In this document: piece by piece, positions 8,109-55,164 of the stretch
Layout: each line of letters starts with the position of its first letter
Position numbering within the stretch: the stretch's first letter is position 1
Assembly (NCBI RefSeq): GCF_024502345.1
Contig: NZ_JALDNN010000001.1
DNA from: Escherichia coli
GTDB lineage: Bacteria; Pseudomonadota; Gammaproteobacteria; Enterobacterales; Enterobacteriaceae
Reading direction: 5' to 3' (one strand)
DNA length: 64,000 nucleotides
Position numbers and translations under genes: made by a program
The notes under the pieces: generated by a model
Told to the model about the DNA's origin: nothing
Seen by the model: only the letters and a program-made list of their open reading frames with translations
Database searches by the model: none

Positions 8109-10130
8109 TTACGATGCCGCGATAAACAGCTCACGCAGCTGATGCAACTGGTCACGAATTTGCGCCGCTTCTTCGAACTCCAGATTCTGCGCGTGTTGCA
8201 TCATCAACCCTTCCAGCTCATGGATTTTCTGCTGCAACGCTTTAGGCGACATATCCATCGGCACATTATCCGGCTCAACAATCGGGCGCGATTTTCCTCT
8301 GCCCTTCGCTTTGGTTTTGGCAATGTTCTGCCCCAGCGCCAGGATATCGACCACTTTCTTGTTCAAGCCTTGCGGCGTAATGCCGTGTTCCTCGTTGTAC
8401 TTCTGCTGTTTCTCACGGCGACGTTCGGTTTCGCCAATCGCTTTCGCCATTGATGGGGTGATCTTATCGCCGTAGAGAATCGCTTTACCGTTAACGTTAC
8501 GTGCCGCACGACCAATGGTCTGGATCAACGAACGTTCGGAACGCAGGAAGCCTTCTTTGTCAGCGTCGAGGATCGCCACCAGCGACACTTCCGGCATATC
8601 CAGACCTTCGCGCAGTAAGTTGATCCCTACCAGCACGTCGAACTCACCCAGACGCAAGTCGCGGATAATCTCCATACGTTCGACGGTGTCGATATCTGAG
8701 TGAAGATAACGCACGCGCTCGCCATGTTCTTCGAGATATTCGGTAAGATCTTCCGCCATCCGCTTGGTCAGTGTGGTGACCAGTACGCGTTCGTTAATTG
8801 CCGCTCGCTGACGAATCTCCGAAAGAAGATCATCAACCTGTGTCGCCACCGGCCGCACTTCGATAATCGGGTCAAGCAATCCGGTTGGACGCACCACCTG
8901 ATCCACCACATCGCCGCCGGATTTTTCCAGCTCATAATTACCCGGCGTCGCCGAAACATAGATGGTTTGCGGCGCTAATGCTTCGAACTCTTCAAACTTA
9001 AGCGGACGGTTATCCAGCGCTGATGGCAGGCGGAAGCCGTACTCCACCAGTGTCTCTTTACGCGCCCGGTCACCGCGATACATGCCGCCAATTTGTGGAA
9101 TGGTGACGTGAGATTCATCGACCACCAGCAGCCCATCAGCAGGGAGGTAATCAAACAGCGTCGGCGGTGGCTCACCCGGTCCACGACCGGAGAGGAAGCG
9201 CGAGTAGTTTTCAATCCCCGAACAGTAGCCCAGCTCGTTCATCATCTCCAGATCAAACTGGGTACGCTGGGTCAGCCGCTGCTCTTCCAGCAGTTTGTTG
9301 TTTTCCAACAGCACTTTGCGTCTGGCGGCCAGCTCTTCTTTGATCTCCTCCATCGCCTGTACGATGCGCTCGCGCGGTGTGACGTAGTGCGTTTTCGGGT
9401 AGATGGTAAAACGTGGAATAGTGGAAACAATCTGCCCGGTCAGCGGGTCAAATAACGACAATCGTTCCACTTCCTCGTCAAACAGTTCCACGCGAAGTGC
9501 AATGTCATCCGATTCTGCCGGGAAGATATCTATCACCTCGCCACGAACGCGGAAAGTACCACGCTGGAATGCTTGATCATTACGAGCGTATTGCAGCTCC
9601 GCCAGTCGGCGCAGAATCGCGCGCTGATCGATAATCATACCGACCGTGAGATGGAGCATCATCTTGAGATATAAATCAGGATCGCCCAGACCATAAATCG
9701 CGGAAACAGACGCCACCACAACCACATCACGCCGCTCCAGCATCGCTTTGGTGGCGGATAAACGCATCTGCTCAATATGTTCGTTAACCGAGGCATCTTT
9801 CTCAATGAAAGTGTCGGAACTCGGTACATAGGCTTCCGGCTGATAGTAGTCGTAGTAGGAGACGAAATACTCCACCGCGTTTTCCGGGAAGAACTCTTTC
9901 ATTTCGCCATACAGCTGGGCCGCCAGCGTTTTGTTGGGCGCAAGTACCATGGTTGGGCGCTGAAGGTCAGCAATGACATTGGCAATGGTGAAGGTTTTCC
10001 CTGAGCCAGTCACGCCAAGTAACGTCTGGTGCGCCAGGCCATCTTCCAGCCCCTCTTCGAGACGTCGAATCGCCTCTGGCTGATCGCCAGAAGGTTTAAA
10101 AGCGGAATTCAGTTTGAACGGTTTACTCAT
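8109..10130 (-). CDS. uvrB: Excinuclease ABC subunit B
   Basis: 673 aa; Walker A GSGKT and helicase motifs; matches remembered UvrB. Confidence 0.97.
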
Positions 10131-45764: not shown

Positions 45765-47030
45765 TTACGGTTTGAAGTCCAATGGCGCGTTTTTGAACAC
45801 TTCATATACTGCCTGGCTTGGTGGTTTCGGGATCTTCGCAAGTTTAGCTGCTGCCAACGCAGCCTGACAAAGTGCGGGATCGCCACCTTCAGGTTTGATA
45901 TCCAGTAACATACCATCGGGTGCCAGTTTTATGCGCAGCGTACAGGTTTTGCCTGCATAGGACGATGCGTCATAGAACTTACTTTCGATAGCAGATTTAA
46001 TCTGTCCGGCATAGTTATTGATATCGGCCCCTGATGCGCCATTGTTTTTAGTATTACCACTCCCGGCAGGCGAAGCATTGTTCCCTTTCGCCCCTCCCCC
46101 CGTTTTCGGTGCATTCTTACCAGAGCTTAGCTCACCGAAAATATCATCTGCCTCTGCGGCCGCTTTTGCTGCAGCGGCTTTTTCAGCTGCAGCTTTTGCC
46201 GCTGCCGCTTTTTTGTCTGCGGCGGCTTTTTCTGCCGCTGCTTTCTTATCAGCTGCTGCCTTTTCAGCAGCCGCTTTTTCTGCTGCTTTTTTGTCGGCTG
46301 CAGCTTTCTCTGCTGCCGCTTTCTTATCAGCTGCAGCCTTTTCAGCAGCCGCTTTCTTCTCAGCTTCTGCTTTGGCTTTTTCAGCAGCTTCAGTTGCCGC
46401 TTTCTTTCTTGCTTCAGCTGCAGCTGCTTCTGCCGCTTCCGCTTTCTTCTTCAGTGCCGCAGCGGCTGCCTCGGCTTTTTTCTGCGCTTCGGCTGCGGCT
46501 TTGGCGGCTTCTGCTTCTGCTTTTTTCTTTGCGTCTGCAGCCGCTTTCTTCGCTGCTTCTTCCGCAGCTTTAGCATCTGCTTCGGCCTTCGCTTTAGCAT
46601 CTGCCGCCGCTTTCGCTGCCGCCTCTTCAGCTTGCTTCTGCTTTAACTCGGCCTGTTTTGCGGCTTCTTCAGCCTGCTTTTTCTGCTCCTGAGCCGCTAA
46701 CCGCTCTTTCTCAAGTTGCTTCAGGCGTTCCTGTTCAGCCGCTTGTTTCTCACGCAGTTCTTCAGCAGCCTGCTGTTCCTTCATCTTGCGCTGTTCATCA
46801 GAACGCTTCGCGCTTGATTCCTGGCTTTGCATGCGTTTGTACTGCTCAACTACCGCACCTGAATCAACCATGACAGCGTCGATGGACGAACCACCGCCGC
46901 CTCCGGCTGAAGCTTCTATATTCTCATCGAACGAACTCCAGATCAGCGCCGCAAATAAGATGACATGCAGCACTGCTGAAATAATTATCGCCCGCTTGAG
47001 CTTGTCGTTTTGTTCGGTTGCCTTTGACAC
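45765..47030 (-). CDS. tolA: Tol-Pal system protein TolA
   Basis: 421 aa; long Ala/Lys/Glu-rich helical domain with AAEKAAADKKAA repeats. Confidence 0.95.
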   Translation of the reverse strand: MSKATEQNDKLKRAIIISAVLHVILFAALIWSSFDENIEASAGGGGGSSIDAVMVDSGAVVEQYKRMQSQESSAKRSDEQRKMKEQQAAEELREKQAAEQERLKQLEKERLAAQEQKKQAEEAAKQAELKQKQAEEAAAKAAADAKAKAEADAKAAEEAAKKAAADAKKKAEAEAAKAAAEAQKKAEAAAAALKKKAEAAEAAAAEARKKAATEAAEKAKAEAEKKAAAEKAAADKKAAAEKAAADKKAAEKAAAEKAAADKKAAAEKAAADKKAAAAKAAAEKAAAAKAAAEADDIFGELSSGKNAPKTGGGAKGNNASPAGSGNTKNNGASGADINNYAGQIKSAIESKFYDASSYAGKTCTLRIKLAPDGMLLDIKPEGGDPALCQAALAAAKLAKIPKPPSQAVYEVFKNAPLDFKP

Positions 47031-50345: not shown

Positions 50346-51914
50346 TTAGCGTGCCGGCTGAGTAGTCGTGGAAGACTGCTCAAAGTGATAGCGACCGGTT
50401 TTCAGGCTGCTTGGGCCGAGGCGTGCAAACTTGAACATTAAGAACAATTCTGCCACCAGGAACAGGGTATACAGGCCGCAAATCAGCACCATTGAGAAGA
50501 TGAGATCGCCTGCGGTCAGTGACGAGTTCGCCACAGCTGTCGGCAGCACTTCACCGATAGCCCACGGTTGGCGGCCATATTCAGCCACGAACCAGCCCGC
50601 TTCTACAGCAATCCACGGCAGCGGAATACCGTACAGCGCGGCGCGCAGCAGCCATTTTTTCTCGCCAATGCGGTTGCGGATGACACTCCAGAAAGAGAGC
50701 GCGATGATTGCCAGCAGCAGGAAGCCACACGCCACCATGATACGGAACGCGAAGTACAGCGGCGCTACACGCGGAATGGAGTCTTTGGTTGCCTGTTGAA
50801 TCTGCGCTTCAGTCGCATCAGCCACGTTTGGCGTATAGCGTTTCAGCAGCAGACCGTAACCGAGGTCTTTCTTCATGCTATTGAACTGGTCACGAACTGC
50901 CTGGTCGGTAGAACCAGAACGCAGTTGCTCGAGCAGAGAGTACGCCTTCATCCCGTTACGAATGCGTTCTTCATGCTGCACCATCAGTTCTTTCAGGCCG
51001 ATAACTGGAGTATCCACGGAACGCGTTGCAATGATGCCCAGCGCGTAAGGGATCTGGATCGCAAATTTGTTCGTCTCCTCTTCCTGATCAGGAATGCCGA
51101 ACAGAGTAAAGGCAGCAGGCGCAGGTTGCGTTTCCCACTCGGCTTCAATAGCAGCCAGTTTGGTTTTCTGCACGTCGCCCATTTCGTAACCAGATTCATC
51201 ACCCAGAACAATAACAGACAGAACGGCAGCCATACCGAAGCTGGCAGCGATAGCAAAGGAGCGTTTAGCGAAGGCGAAGTCACGACCTTTCAGCATATAC
51301 CATGCGCTGATACCGAGGATGAACATCGCGCCAGTCACATAACCAGACGCTACAGTGTGAACGAATTTCACCTGAGCAACCGGGTTAAGCACCAGCTCGG
51401 AGAAGCTCACCATCTCCATACGCATAGTTTCAAAGTTGAAATCGGACGCGATTGGGTTTTGCATCCAGCCGTTCGCAACCAGAATCCACAGTGCGGACAG
51501 GTTTGAACCGAGCGCCACCAGCCAGGTGACACACATATGCTGAACTTTACCCAGACGATCCCAACCGAAGAAGAACAGACCTACAAAGGTGGATTCGAGG
51601 AAGAAGGCCATCAGACCTTCGATTGCCAGCGGCGCACCGAAGATATCCCCTACATAGTGGGAATAGTAAGACCAGTTAGTCCCGAACTGGAACTCCATGG
51701 TCAGACCGGTAGCCACACCCAGAGCGAAGTTGATACCAAACAACTTGCCCCAGAACTTGGTCATATCTTTATAAATCTGTTTGCCGGAAAGGACGTAGAC
51801 CGTTTCCATAATGGCCAGCAGGAACGCCATACCGAGCGTCAGTGGCACAAAAAGGAAGTGGTACATCGCGGTCAAGGCAAACTGTAAGCGCGACAGTTCG
51901 ACTATATCTAACAT
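50346..51914 (-). CDS. cydA: Cytochrome bd-I ubiquinol oxidase subunit I
   Basis: 522 aa from [15 protein letters not shown]. Confidence 0.95.
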
Positions 51915-52251
51915 CATGACTCCTTGCTCATCGCATGAAGACTCCGAGAGTGAACCCCGTTAGAAAGGGTCACACGCATGCCCCAATACAAAATTATTTG
52001 CTCGCCTCTATCGTTGCCATTTCATCAAAAGAGGAAAAGACAATGATAAAAAAGTTACAAATATGTTAATGAATAAACCAAATTGATCCCGTAATTATAT
52101 TACGCCGCAAAATCCTTACAATAAACAGGTTTTTATTGAGCAAATTTGCATTTTTCGACAGTGATCAATTTATAGCGAAATTGTCACGATCTCACCAATT
52201 TGATCTACGACAATTTATCGTGTTTTGCAGATTTTTTTCAAGAATTAAAAA

Positions 52252-52265
52252 TTGATTTATATCAA
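52252..52265. promoter_or_regulatory. FNR-type box in the cydA upstream region
   Basis: ttgatttatatcaa = TTGAT-N4-ATCAA about 340 bp upstream of cydA. Confidence 0.55.
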
Positions 52266-52719
52266 AACCAACCAAATATGTTAATTATGTATAAACCATA
52301 GATCATTGGTGATTTTATTGTTAATTTATTGTGAAATATTTATGCAACACAATTATTACAATGAAAAGGTATAGATAAAAAACCAGTGTTTTATTTAACA
52401 GAACCGCCCAATCAACTTTTTATAATACCAATTGATTAGAGTAGCCAATTTGTTGCTATTTTACATAACATATTTTTATCAAAGTTAATTGATTGTTGCC
52501 TTTATGAGCACCGACCGTAAGCCCGTTATGTTATTGTTTCATTAGTAATAATCACTTAAATGTATCGATGAAACAGGTATGACTTACCGGGAGTGATTGT
52601 TTCTGAGTGAACAGAGGCCACTTTCGCCTGATAAATGAAAAATGAGCGATTTTTGCAAGTTAGTTTTTCTATAGCCGAGTACGCTCAGCGCCTCGCTTGA
52701 TTACAATGAGGTTGCTGCT

Positions 52720-53664
52720 ATGAGTCCTGATAATATCGGTTCGGCTGTCAATCGCTTCTCAGGTTGGCCATCTAATGATCCTCTAAAAACAGATGAAGAA
52801 TCAATGAAATCACCCGTGACTGTGCAAGTAATAAAGATGATTGCCGCCATCCTTGACCCACATCGGATAGTCGTTGGAATTGATACACTTTATACAACGC
52901 AGCGCGAAACATTTACCTCAGAGAGTCAACAGCTCATTGAATCAGCATTGCAAACACTTCATGTGATGAATTTAAATAATCTGGAAACAAATCGCGATGA
53001 AGAAGGTCACTATCTGGCTTTTGAATATAACGTTGACACCTCTGACAGAATAACCGTTTCTGCTTATAATGAAAAAAAGCCTGGCTGCTATGGCCAATGT
53101 CTTTTAATACAGGATGACGAAACAGACTTATTTAACCTGATAAAAATTAAAATTTTCGAAGCCAGGCATAATTATGTCGCTCAATTGATGAGCGATCCGG
53201 AATTTATGTTCAAATTCAGTTATAGCGCTCAACAAAATAGATTAGAACCTCATCTTCTGGTTCCCGCTTATTTCCCTCTAAAAACAAACGAACCGGTTAC
53301 GCAAGAGGATGTACTGTTACTTTATCGTTTCTTTAAAATGAATGATGATTTTAATAAATTAACATCAGAGGAATACATGAGTATCATGACTCCTCTGATG
53401 AAGTGTGAGCGTAGCGTCCACGACAACAACAGGTATGTGACGGGCAAAGATACCCATCTTCTGGACTATCCTCCTTCTGGTAACCAGATACATTTCCATA
53501 TTTTTCCTGACGAATCAGCAACACTAGTCCTTTATTTTTCAAACAATGACCTTGAATGTTTCGTCTTTGAAAGAGATATTCCTAGCCAGTATCGCTTTTT
53601 CAAAATGTTTACCAATCTGGCACTGGTTATAGATCAGTTAACCGAAGCCAATAAAATACTTTAA
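52720..53664 (+). CDS. Hypothetical protein (314 aa), AT-rich accessory gene, no recognised domain
   Basis: Intact ORF with SD (gagg) 9 nt upstream; visibly AT-rich codon usage; no TM segment, signal peptide or P-loop; Ser/Asn/Pro-rich N-terminus. Confidence 0.6.
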   Translation: MSPDNIGSAVNRFSGWPSNDPLKTDEESMKSPVTVQVIKMIAAILDPHRIVVGIDTLYTTQRETFTSESQQLIESALQTLHVMNLNNLETNRDEEGHYLAFEYNVDTSDRITVSAYNEKKPGCYGQCLLIQDDETDLFNLIKIKIFEARHNYVAQLMSDPEFMFKFSYSAQQNRLEPHLLVPAYFPLKTNEPVTQEDVLLLYRFFKMNDDFNKLTSEEYMSIMTPLMKCERSVHDNNRYVTGKDTHLLDYPPSGNQIHFHIFPDESATLVLYFSNNDLECFVFERDIPSQYRFFKMFTNLALVIDQLTEANKIL

Positions 53665-53744
53665 TTTTCTATATATCCCTATGGCAAATATTGCTAAACA
53701 ATGCCTGGGGATTAATTTTTATTACTCACGGAAAGATTTAAATA

Positions 53745-54167
53745 ATGATACCATCTCAGATCTCTTTCAATACCCTTCCAGTCAATGCAACATACGCTTC
53801 AGAGACAACAGTTGACACACAAAAATTCTCTGACATCCTCTACTCAGCGGGGTGTTCCCTAAAGGATATGGCTTATCTGAGCAGATGTCTGGCATCAATA
53901 CACCCGACTCTCGCCAAAAACATTTATGAAACAGAAAATCTCAGCGATCAAAAATTACTGCATATTGATTGCCGTAGTACAAATGACATCAAGATAAATA
54001 TCTTTTTTGGTCAGCAACGAGAAGGATTAATTGAAATTAGTTCTGACACAGTTATTTTTTCGATACTGTCTTCATTGATTGACTCCGCCATTTCTAAATT
54101 TCAACATCAAAACCCCGTTAACGGTTCAGTTAATCCTGAACTATTGTATAAGGATTATACTGATTAA
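53745..54167 (+). CDS. Hypothetical protein (140 aa), AT-rich accessory gene, no recognised domain
   Basis: Intact ORF 80 bp downstream of the 314 aa ORF, same strand, SD-like ggaaag; Ser/Thr/Asn-rich N-terminus. Confidence 0.55.
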   Translation: MIPSQISFNTLPVNATYASETTVDTQKFSDILYSAGCSLKDMAYLSRCLASIHPTLAKNIYETENLSDQKLLHIDCRSTNDIKINIFFGQQREGLIEISSDTVIFSILSSLIDSAISKFQHQNPVNGSVNPELLYKDYTD

Positions 54168-54714
54168 ACCCACCCAGTCGCGAAAAATGGCCTGCGTTAT
54201 TGCCAGACGTAATAAAACCGTTGATTAACGTTACTCATACTGGTAGCACCTTCATGTACCTCTCTTTTTTACGAAAAATCAAAAGAGCTAACTAAGGTCA
54301 TAATTCGCATGAATCATTAACCATTTGTTATTTTCAACATTATTTTTACATTAAGCAGAAATGAATTGCAGTGAAATTCGACTTAAATCTTATGAAATGC
54401 ATTTACTCATGGCTAAAACCACGTCACAAAAATGCAAATTAGAAGTAGATCACAATTATCTCAATACATTAAATCAAGTTAATTTTAAAAATTTAACATT
54501 CATGTCATTAGTTGACATAACACACTGAATTAACATGGAAATTTAAAAACACACTTTAAACAATCATTTCCCGAAAGACATTTTGAAAATAGATCAATTG
54601 CAACATTACGGTCAGATAAAGACACTCCTGTGATATTAAACCTGTGCCGTTATGAACGGCCATAAATACGACGTGTGTAACTTATTTTACTCTCTGTCTT
54701 ACAAAGGATTACCC

Positions 54715-55164
54715 ATGAAGAAAGCAACACTTGTGATTGGCGTTATTGGCGCGGACTGCCATGCAGTAGGCAATAAAGTTCTGGACCGCGTTTTTAGCAA
54801 CCACGACTTCAGAGTCATTAATCTGGGCGTAATGGTCAGCCAGGACGAATATATTGATGCTGCCATCGAAACTGGCGCTGACGCGATTATCGTCTCCTCT
54901 ATCTATGGGCATGGCGATATCGACTGTCTGGGCATGCGCGAACGCTGCATCGAGCGTGGACTGGGTGACATCCTCCTCTATGTGGGCGGTAACCTGGTGG
55001 TCGGAAAACATGACTTCGCTGACGTGGAAACCAAGTTCAAAGAGATGGGATTTGATCGCGTCTTTGCCCCAAGTCATGACTTAGAAGATGTTTGTCAGCT
55101 GATGGCCCACGATATCAATCAACGTCATGACGTTGATACTCGTATTCTTGAAGAGGCTATCTGA
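54715..55164 (+). CDS. glmS: Glutamate mutase sigma subunit (B12-binding)
   Basis: Cobalamin-binding DxHxxG motif ([10 protein letters not shown]); close match to remembered Clostridium GlmS/MutS; start at MKKATLVIG. Not the GlcN-6-P synthase glmS. Confidence 0.88.

Follow-up and report, generated by a model that had tools for sequence, protein, structure and literature searches.

A314 and B140, two AT-rich Escherichia orphan genes at the cydA-proximal edge of the sucD-cydA interval

Next to the cytochrome bd-I gene cydA, a 64,000-nt stretch of an Escherichia coli genome (assembly GCF_024502345.1, contig NZ_JALDNN010000001.1; hereafter the window) contains two AT-rich genes, here termed A314 and B140. 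A first-pass annotation made from the letters of the window had described them as two intact, co-oriented open reading frames (ORFs) 80 bp apart, each with a plausible Shine-Dalgarno (SD) sequence, and had proposed that they form an undescribed two-gene module. Both the coordinates and the sites were confirmed (Table 1): an SD-like GAGG precedes the ATG of A314 by 8 nt, and the ATG of B140 is preceded, at 9 nt, by the weaker GGAAAG. RefSeq places both genes at identical coordinates in related genomes and names each product "hypothetical protein". The best-matching genome over positions 51900-54700 was that of E. coli strain F9792, with 99.6% identity.

The two genes differ sharply in base composition from the flanking core genes, as the first-pass annotation had judged by eye. 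GC content was 0.36-0.41 across A314 and B140 and 0.28-0.33 in both flanking spacers, compared to 0.50-0.56 in cydA and the glm genes. At the level of single genes the values were 0.38 for A314, 0.37 for B140 and 0.53 for glmL, and GC content at third codon positions (GC3) was 0.35 and 0.34 for A314 and B140 versus 0.62 for cydA and 0.59 for glmL. The smaller protein had been thought to be acidic. This is correct for B140 (pI 4.88), although A314 is equally so (pI 4.85). Their location within the variable sucD-cydA interval, at the end next to cydA, was also confirmed. The description of the flanks as ORF-free held for their lengths, 802 and 547 bp, but the upstream spacer is mostly cydAB control region and not island DNA. 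A terminator-like hairpin was not found in the spacer between A314 and B140, and Rfam (E <= 1), promoter/terminator and repeat scans of 51.5-55.2 kb gave nothing above background. The downstream spacer, which contains no conserved ORF and no Rfam match, is 92% identical in two of the compared loci (L002 and L008).

Table 1. Coordinates of A314, B140 and surrounding features (positions in the window unless another contig is named)
Feature	Position	Strand	Description
A314	52720-53664	+	314 aa, acidic, soluble; Sakai ECs_0767, WP_001310136 family
B140	53745-54167	+	140 aa, acidic; Sakai ECs_0766, WP_000613119 family
A314-B140 spacer	53665-53744		80 bp; contains the weak SD of B140
cydA	50346-51917	-	cytochrome bd-I subunit I; conserved core neighbour, divergent from A314
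cydA-A314 intergenic region	51918-52719		AT-rich, 802 bp; common to the divergent cydA and A314
Spacer upstream of glmS	54168-54714		AT-rich, 547 bp, GC ~0.31; presumably with the glm operon promoter
glmS	54715-55164	+	first gene of the glutamate mutase/methylaspartate ammonia-lyase operon, GC ~51-53%
Enterobacterial repetitive intergenic consensus (ERIC) elements	8345-8474, 8716-8788, 9084-9213 of contig L008 (Escherichia sp. MOD1-EC7003)		locus inactivated

Several tests indicated that the two ORFs are protein-coding genes. In 2000 shuffles of the AT-rich segment, a stop-free run of at least 314 codons was never obtained (0/2000) and one of at least 140 codons was obtained in 1.25%. When A314 of the window was aligned with its counterpart on an E. 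albertii-type contig (L003), both comprised exactly 314 codons without an indel, at 64% amino acid identity. The synonymous divergence (dS) was 0.53 and the ratio of nonsynonymous to synonymous divergence (dN/dS) was 0.42 (Fisher p ~1e-7), while the other two frames gave ratios of 0.80 and 0.93. Overall, dN/dS ranged from 0.28 to 0.45 for A314 and from 0.23 to 0.42 for B140, and the corresponding polymorphism ratio (pN/pS) averaged 0.37 and 0.27, respectively, across nine sampled E. coli loci. These dN/dS values are about ten times or more those of cydA (0.006-0.035) and several-fold above those of glmL (0.05-0.17). From these data we conclude that A314 and B140 are genuine coding genes under weak, frame-specific purifying selection.

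Searches for relatives led back to Escherichia. Pfam (single sequences and alignment), NCBIfam, PADLOC, PHROGs and PDB (sequence and profile) returned nothing below E ~0.04 for either protein, PADLOC-DB v2 gave 0 families at E <= 1 for each, and tblastn against phages identified no phage relatives. A phmmer search of 1.84 billion cluster representatives with A314 recovered only 14 fragments of A314 itself, and word-indexed searches of 5.8 billion proteins matched A314 and B140 only to entries from E. coli, Shigella and E. albertii; relatives of B140 were sought by two such word-indexed searches, the exhaustive phmmer run being of A314 only. A peptide-pattern scan of one genome per species (100,044 species) matched four loci, namely the E. 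albertii type strain, Escherichia sp. MOD1-EC7003 and two contigs from metagenome-assembled genomes (MAGs). The MAG contigs (L005, JAIJJM010000209.1; L006, DXKH01000067.1) are labelled Collinsella sp. and Citrobacter sp. and are 92-94% identical to the E. coli locus; they probably reflect binning contamination or mislabelling of GTDB species-representative MAGs. Matches in a plasmid collection included two records of ~4.9 Mb. These PLSDB entries, NZ_CP141089.1 (4.94 Mb) and NZ_CP134663.1 (4.90 Mb), bear the cydA-proximal locus and are evidently chromosomes filed as plasmids.

Structure prediction was similarly uninformative as to family. The AlphaFold2 models had a mean predicted local distance difference test (pLDDT) score of 48 for A314 and 43.5 for B140, with only A314 residues ~190-300 reaching 66-86, and no structural neighbours were found for these low-confidence models. 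Transmembrane helices were not detected in either protein (maximum KD19 of 1.25 for A314 and 1.52 for B140). The first-pass statement that neither product has a recognisable domain or transmembrane helix was therefore borne out by the family searches and the KD19 scan, and the orphan status of both proteins also withstood the profile, PADLOC and AlphaFold2/fold-neighbour checks, which matched them to no family or fold. The predicted secondary structure follows an alpha-alpha-beta-beta-beta-alpha pattern that occurs twice in A314 and once in B140. We considered whether A314 arose by tandem duplication of a module resembling B140, but hhalign and shuffled Smith-Waterman comparisons did not support it (z = 1.5, 0.6 and -0.6), and the repeated pattern is taken as no more than a hint.

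Within E. coli the segment is common and rarely broken. It was present at a coverage of at least 80% in 1134 of 5426 complete genomes. The full segment was found in all but one of 1135 matching genomes, the remaining one, which was recovered with a more sensitive blastn search, having an IS4 insertion; that search of the same 5426 genomes found no remnants in the others. Among nine sampled E. coli loci, A314 was intact in all nine (in one case without its stop codon) and B140 in eight. The situation is different in the sister lineages. In E. albertii the gene order is cydA, A314, a B140 remnant, a gene for a 258-aa signal-peptide protein and sucD; glm genes are absent. Contig L003 has an intact A314, which is frameshifted in the type strain (L007), and of B140 only a trace of 31 residues or 50 nt is left. 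The L003 protein belongs to a cluster (P0004) of 131 member sequences whose representative is 314 aa long, the length also encoded by a second E. albertii allele that has diverged (A0ABD7E639). In MOD1-EC7003, a member of a cryptic clade (L008), the glm operon is kept. A 130-bp ERIC element interrupts A314, another copy lies in the A314-B140 spacer, and B140 has lost its first ~280 nt. Only fragments of the two genes were found in Shigella dysenteriae. Conservation of the ORFs as intact genes in related genomes, which the first-pass annotation had named as one test of its reading, thus holds in E. coli and only partly in the sister lineages.

The sucD-cydA interval is a hypervariable hotspot, for which four or more alternative contents were seen, the E. 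albertii arrangement described above being one of them. K-12-type genomes contain mngR-mngAB, which in the lineage of the window is replaced by the glm cluster. O157-type genomes contain LysR-cobO-fumD-gltP-DUF4387-AtuA-mal-glmESL plus B140 and A314, and FDAARGOS_1255 contains a lone tetratricopeptide repeat (TPR) pseudogene. The enteropathogenic E. coli (EPEC) strain E2348/69 is a mosaic of the mng and glm/B140/A314 types, with the order sucD, mngR, mngA', ISEc13, glmS, B140, A314, cydA; glmL, glmE and mal are deleted, and A314 and B140 are intact at 93-94% identity. As A314 occupies the same cydAB-adjacent site in E. coli, E. albertii and the cryptic clade, any acquisition predates their divergence. 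Horizontal acquisition, proposed by the first-pass annotation, is plausible from composition, but it would have to be placed before the species split. In the comparison of the window with the E. albertii-type locus, dS was 0.53 for A314 versus 0.26 for the codon-biased cydA. Together with the shared site, this value indicates that A314 is an old resident of the hotspot and not a recent import with the glm cluster. A separate observation concerns the 258-aa protein encoded between A314 and sucD in E. albertii (L003:11786-12562; cut to 114 aa in L007:9862-10206). Its N-terminus is like a signal peptide, and its sequence is beta-rich and outer-membrane-like. As it has no NCBIfam or precomputed Pfam match, it represents a further orphan in the sucD-cydA hotspot.

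Although the genes had been proposed to form a two-gene module, co-dependence was not supported. A314 is intact without an intact B140 in two settings, E. albertii L003, where B140 is degraded, and the enterotoxigenic E. coli (ETEC) strain ETEC1701, where B140 is frameshifted. We conclude that the two genes do not form an obligate system, and that B140 is less stable than A314 and the more fragile partner.

The broken copies could also be taken to mean that both genes are functionless, decaying relics of an old insertion that are still intact in E. coli for lack of time and because they are silenced. The frameshift in the E. albertii type strain, the ERIC insertions and the deletion in MOD1-EC7003, the fragments in S. 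dysenteriae, the near-zero expression described below and the high dN/dS relative to cydA and glmL are all consistent with decay. However, pN/pS is significantly below 1 and this constraint is specific to the annotated frame, A314 has kept exactly 314 codons over a dS of ~0.5, and the full segment is retained in 1134 of 1135 E. coli carriers. In addition, P0004 and A0ABD7E639 show that A314 was maintained in E. albertii long after B140 had decayed. We therefore regard the relic explanation as rather unlikely.

The DNA upstream of A314 bears on its expression. Query positions 1-656 of the 51900-54700 segment (to ~52555) match E. coli genomes lacking the pair at ~91% identity, and only ~165 bp upstream of A314 (~52556-52719) are specific to pair carriers. 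Positions 51918 to ~52555 are the cydAB control region. In K-12 this region is reported to be repressed by H-NS and antirepressed by ArcA; chromatin immunoprecipitation sequencing identified three ArcA-binding regions, there are multiple transcription starts, ArcA is thought to activate cydAB by antagonising H-NS, and FNR also binds (PMC3798270, PMC3688515). The entire 51918-52719 region has a GC content of 0.28-0.39 and is 85% identical to that of E. albertii and 94% identical to that of the cryptic clade. The K-12-type allele upstream of cydA (3181 records) is ~82% identical to the window over 51900-52290, below the 85% of E. albertii over the whole spacer. Such a difference points to an old polymorphism or to a recombination boundary within this control region.

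In EDL933, every ORF between glmS and cydA was expressed at 0-12 reads per kilobase per million mapped reads (RPKM) across 11 conditions. The 2.75-kb AT-rich block consisting of the cydAB control region, A314, B140 and the glm leader probably constitutes a single H-NS-silenced domain. If so, A314 and B140 would be expressed only when silencing is relieved, e.g. by ArcA-type anti-repression or by another anti-silencer. The two genes resemble the H-NS-bound, lineage-restricted ORFans of enterobacteria in their AT-richness, single-genus range, lack of homologues, fast evolution and near-silence, and they likewise adjoin a documented H-NS-controlled region, the cydAB promoter. Unlike those ORFans, they lie on no recognisable mobile element, they were apparently inherited vertically since before the split of E. 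coli and E. albertii, and their connection to H-NS is one that we infer.

The first-pass annotation had noted N-termini rich in Ser, Thr, Asn and Pro and poor in Leu, a composition reminiscent of type III secretion signals, and the numbers agree with this description. The fraction of S/T/N/P/Q in the first 25 residues was 0.44 for A314 and 0.52 for B140, whereas 44 other ORFs of the window averaged 0.25 +/- 0.09 with a maximum of 0.40; each of the two segments contains one Leu. AlphaFold2 predicted no secondary structure for either N-terminus, with pLDDT <50. This signal-like composition is non-specific, however, and N/S/T-rich tails are common in AT-rich genes anyway. One explanation built on these features is export of one or both proteins by a type III secretion system, encoded by the locus of enterocyte effacement (LEE) or by ETT2. 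Either both would be effectors or A314 would be an effector and B140 its chaperone, with both being H-NS-silenced and virulence-induced. The low GC content, disordered Leu-poor N-termini, genus restriction and silence in broth are features in common with non-LEE effectors (Nle, EspX, EspY, EspL). The genes are also found in attaching/effacing pathogens (O157:H7, O55:H7, O145 and EPEC E2348/69, with E. albertii carrying A314), and there is a small acidic gene alongside, B140, whose size and pI would fit a class I chaperone.

Several observations argue against such a role. Neither protein resembles any family of effectors or class I chaperones in sequence or fold. The locus lies outside prophages, exchangeable effector loci and pathogenicity islands; its neighbours are cydAB and glm-mal, it contains no integrase or phage genes, and the proteins have no phage relatives. 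Roughly two thirds of the carrier genomes are non-O157, from dogs, poultry, pigs, humans and water, and they include many strains of pathotypes not known for LEE. A porcine O139:H1 strain and an ETEC strain, of pathotypes not known to have LEE, are among the carriers. The predicted topology of B140, a disordered tail followed by alpha-alpha-beta-beta-beta-alpha, does not match the class I chaperone fold, and B140 itself bears a signal-like tail. Neither protein is known to be listed in the published secretome surveys of Sakai and E2348/69. We consider it unlikely that A314 and B140 are secreted effectors or an effector-chaperone pair. A broader version of the idea is that A314, possibly with B140, founds a new-fold, Escherichia-specific family with an active role that is H-NS-silenced and deployed only in the host. 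Its members would be, for example, a cryptic LEE/ETT2 substrate or a factor of a novel type that acts in conflict or in interaction with the host. This broader version strikes us as a similarly long shot.

A toxin-immunity or abortive-infection-type defence pair had also been suggested, and a toxin-antitoxin (TA) pair was considered with it. As in type II TA and two-gene abortive-infection systems, a larger and a smaller gene lie side by side on one strand in DNA of foreign composition, both products are acidic like many immunity proteins, and the two may have one predicted module architecture in common. The similarity between the putative modules was, however, insignificant by the z-scores given above, and no PADLOC, PHROG or Pfam toxin, antitoxin or immunity match was obtained. 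In addition, the 80-bp gap (in place of an overlap), the 314-aa size of the acidic upstream product and the lack of a DNA-binding domain are atypical of type II TA systems. There are no copies on mobile elements, plasmids or phages, the neighbours are core and metabolic genes instead of a defence island, and silence under 11 conditions differs from the usual expression of TA and defence genes. The specific arrangement in which A314 is the toxin and B140 the antitoxin was ruled out; as A314 persists without B140 in E. albertii and ETEC1701, it cannot be a toxin that B140 neutralises. This argument concerns that arrangement and not the reverse one, but on the evidence as a whole we find a TA or defence function very improbable.

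The first-pass annotation had finally suggested regulation of the adjacent glutamate mutase operon. Within E. coli, glmE was found in 1131 genomes and the pair in 1134-1138, i.e. the pair and the glm cluster travel together. This near-perfect co-occurrence does not extend across taxa. The glm-mal-fumD cluster has been described in Klebsiella, Citrobacter, Salmonella, Yersinia, Morganella and others without A314 or B140 (Kronen and Berg 2015, PMC4682846). Conversely, A314 is found in E. albertii without glm genes, and E2348/69 has kept both A314 and B140 despite its glmL, glmE and mal deletion. The tally of co-occurrence was therefore positive inside E. coli, with the pair and the cluster separable in these two cases. 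The immediate neighbours also do not share a base composition, either in GC (0.38/0.37 versus 0.53) or in GC3 (0.35/0.34 versus 0.59). Thus, despite the co-occurrence with glmE and the invariably divergent position of A314 opposite cydA across a common control region in three Escherichia lineages, an accessory or regulatory role in the glutamate mutase-methylaspartase pathway or for cytochrome bd is hardly tenable, since the pair and the glm cluster are found apart in both directions and differ in composition, ~79% of E. coli run cydAB without the pair, and no DNA-binding or cofactor-binding signature was found in these two acidic proteins.

Some annotation details of the neighbourhood were also noted. 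The longest ORF for glmS begins at 54652 (170 aa), while the RefSeq start is equivalent to 54715 (149 aa, MKKATLV...), so the first 21 codons of the longer ORF are probably untranslated. The AT-rich glmS leader contains a 55-aa ORF at 54361-54528 that has no support as a gene. The Sakai locus tags jump from ECs_0764 (glmS) to ECs_0766 (B140); because ECs_0765 is skipped, a formerly annotated ORF of this leader may have been dropped. Elsewhere in the window, tolA (46000-46750) has a strong AT skew (down to -0.70) and a GC skew of -0.2, presumably owing to its repetitive Ala/Lys/Glu-rich central domain.

Having weighed these alternatives, we favour, with slightly better than even confidence, the interpretation that A314 and B140 are coding orphans found only in Escherichia, long-term residents of the cydA-proximal site that are neither components of the glm cluster nor an obligate two-gene system. 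The best-supported account is that A314 keeps a function that is under selection and does not depend on B140 or on the glm operon. Both genes would be under weak constraint, can be dispensed with in several lineages and are not appreciably transcribed in culture. Judging from the predicted models, A314 may be a soluble, acidic protein of two domains whose N-terminal tail is disordered, and it would most likely act alone by protein binding and not as an enzyme or a DNA-binding regulator. B140 would be a dispensable accessory gene undergoing loss.

Several points weigh against this account. A314 contains invariant Cys, His, Asp and Glu residues, e.g. C127, a C229-E-R-S-x-H-D motif, H260 and D264-E265, and these could equally make up a catalytic site. 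The low confidence of the AlphaFold2 models also weakens the two-domain, non-enzymatic picture of A314. Splitting or breakage of the pair is very rare inside E. coli, as would also be expected of genes that function together. As for silence, the statement for A314 and B140 depends on the near-silence of all four ORFs from glmS to cydA, whichever EDL933 Z-numbers correspond to the two genes, and the proposed H-NS silencing of the block is read across from the adjoining cydAB region. Finally, dN/dS values well below 1 imply that A314 and B140 do something that our account leaves unspecified.

Approximately one in five complete E. coli genomes bears these two genes, to which no function, family or fold can be attached. 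The present analysis narrows the possibilities: A314 and B140 are real genes that do not belong to glutamate fermentation or to any recognisable TA or defence system, and they do not form an obligate pair. Otherwise they would amount to one more silenced, slowly eroding orphan locus, but if A314 proves to be secreted or host-induced, it would add an Escherichia-specific player to the biology of attaching/effacing pathogens.

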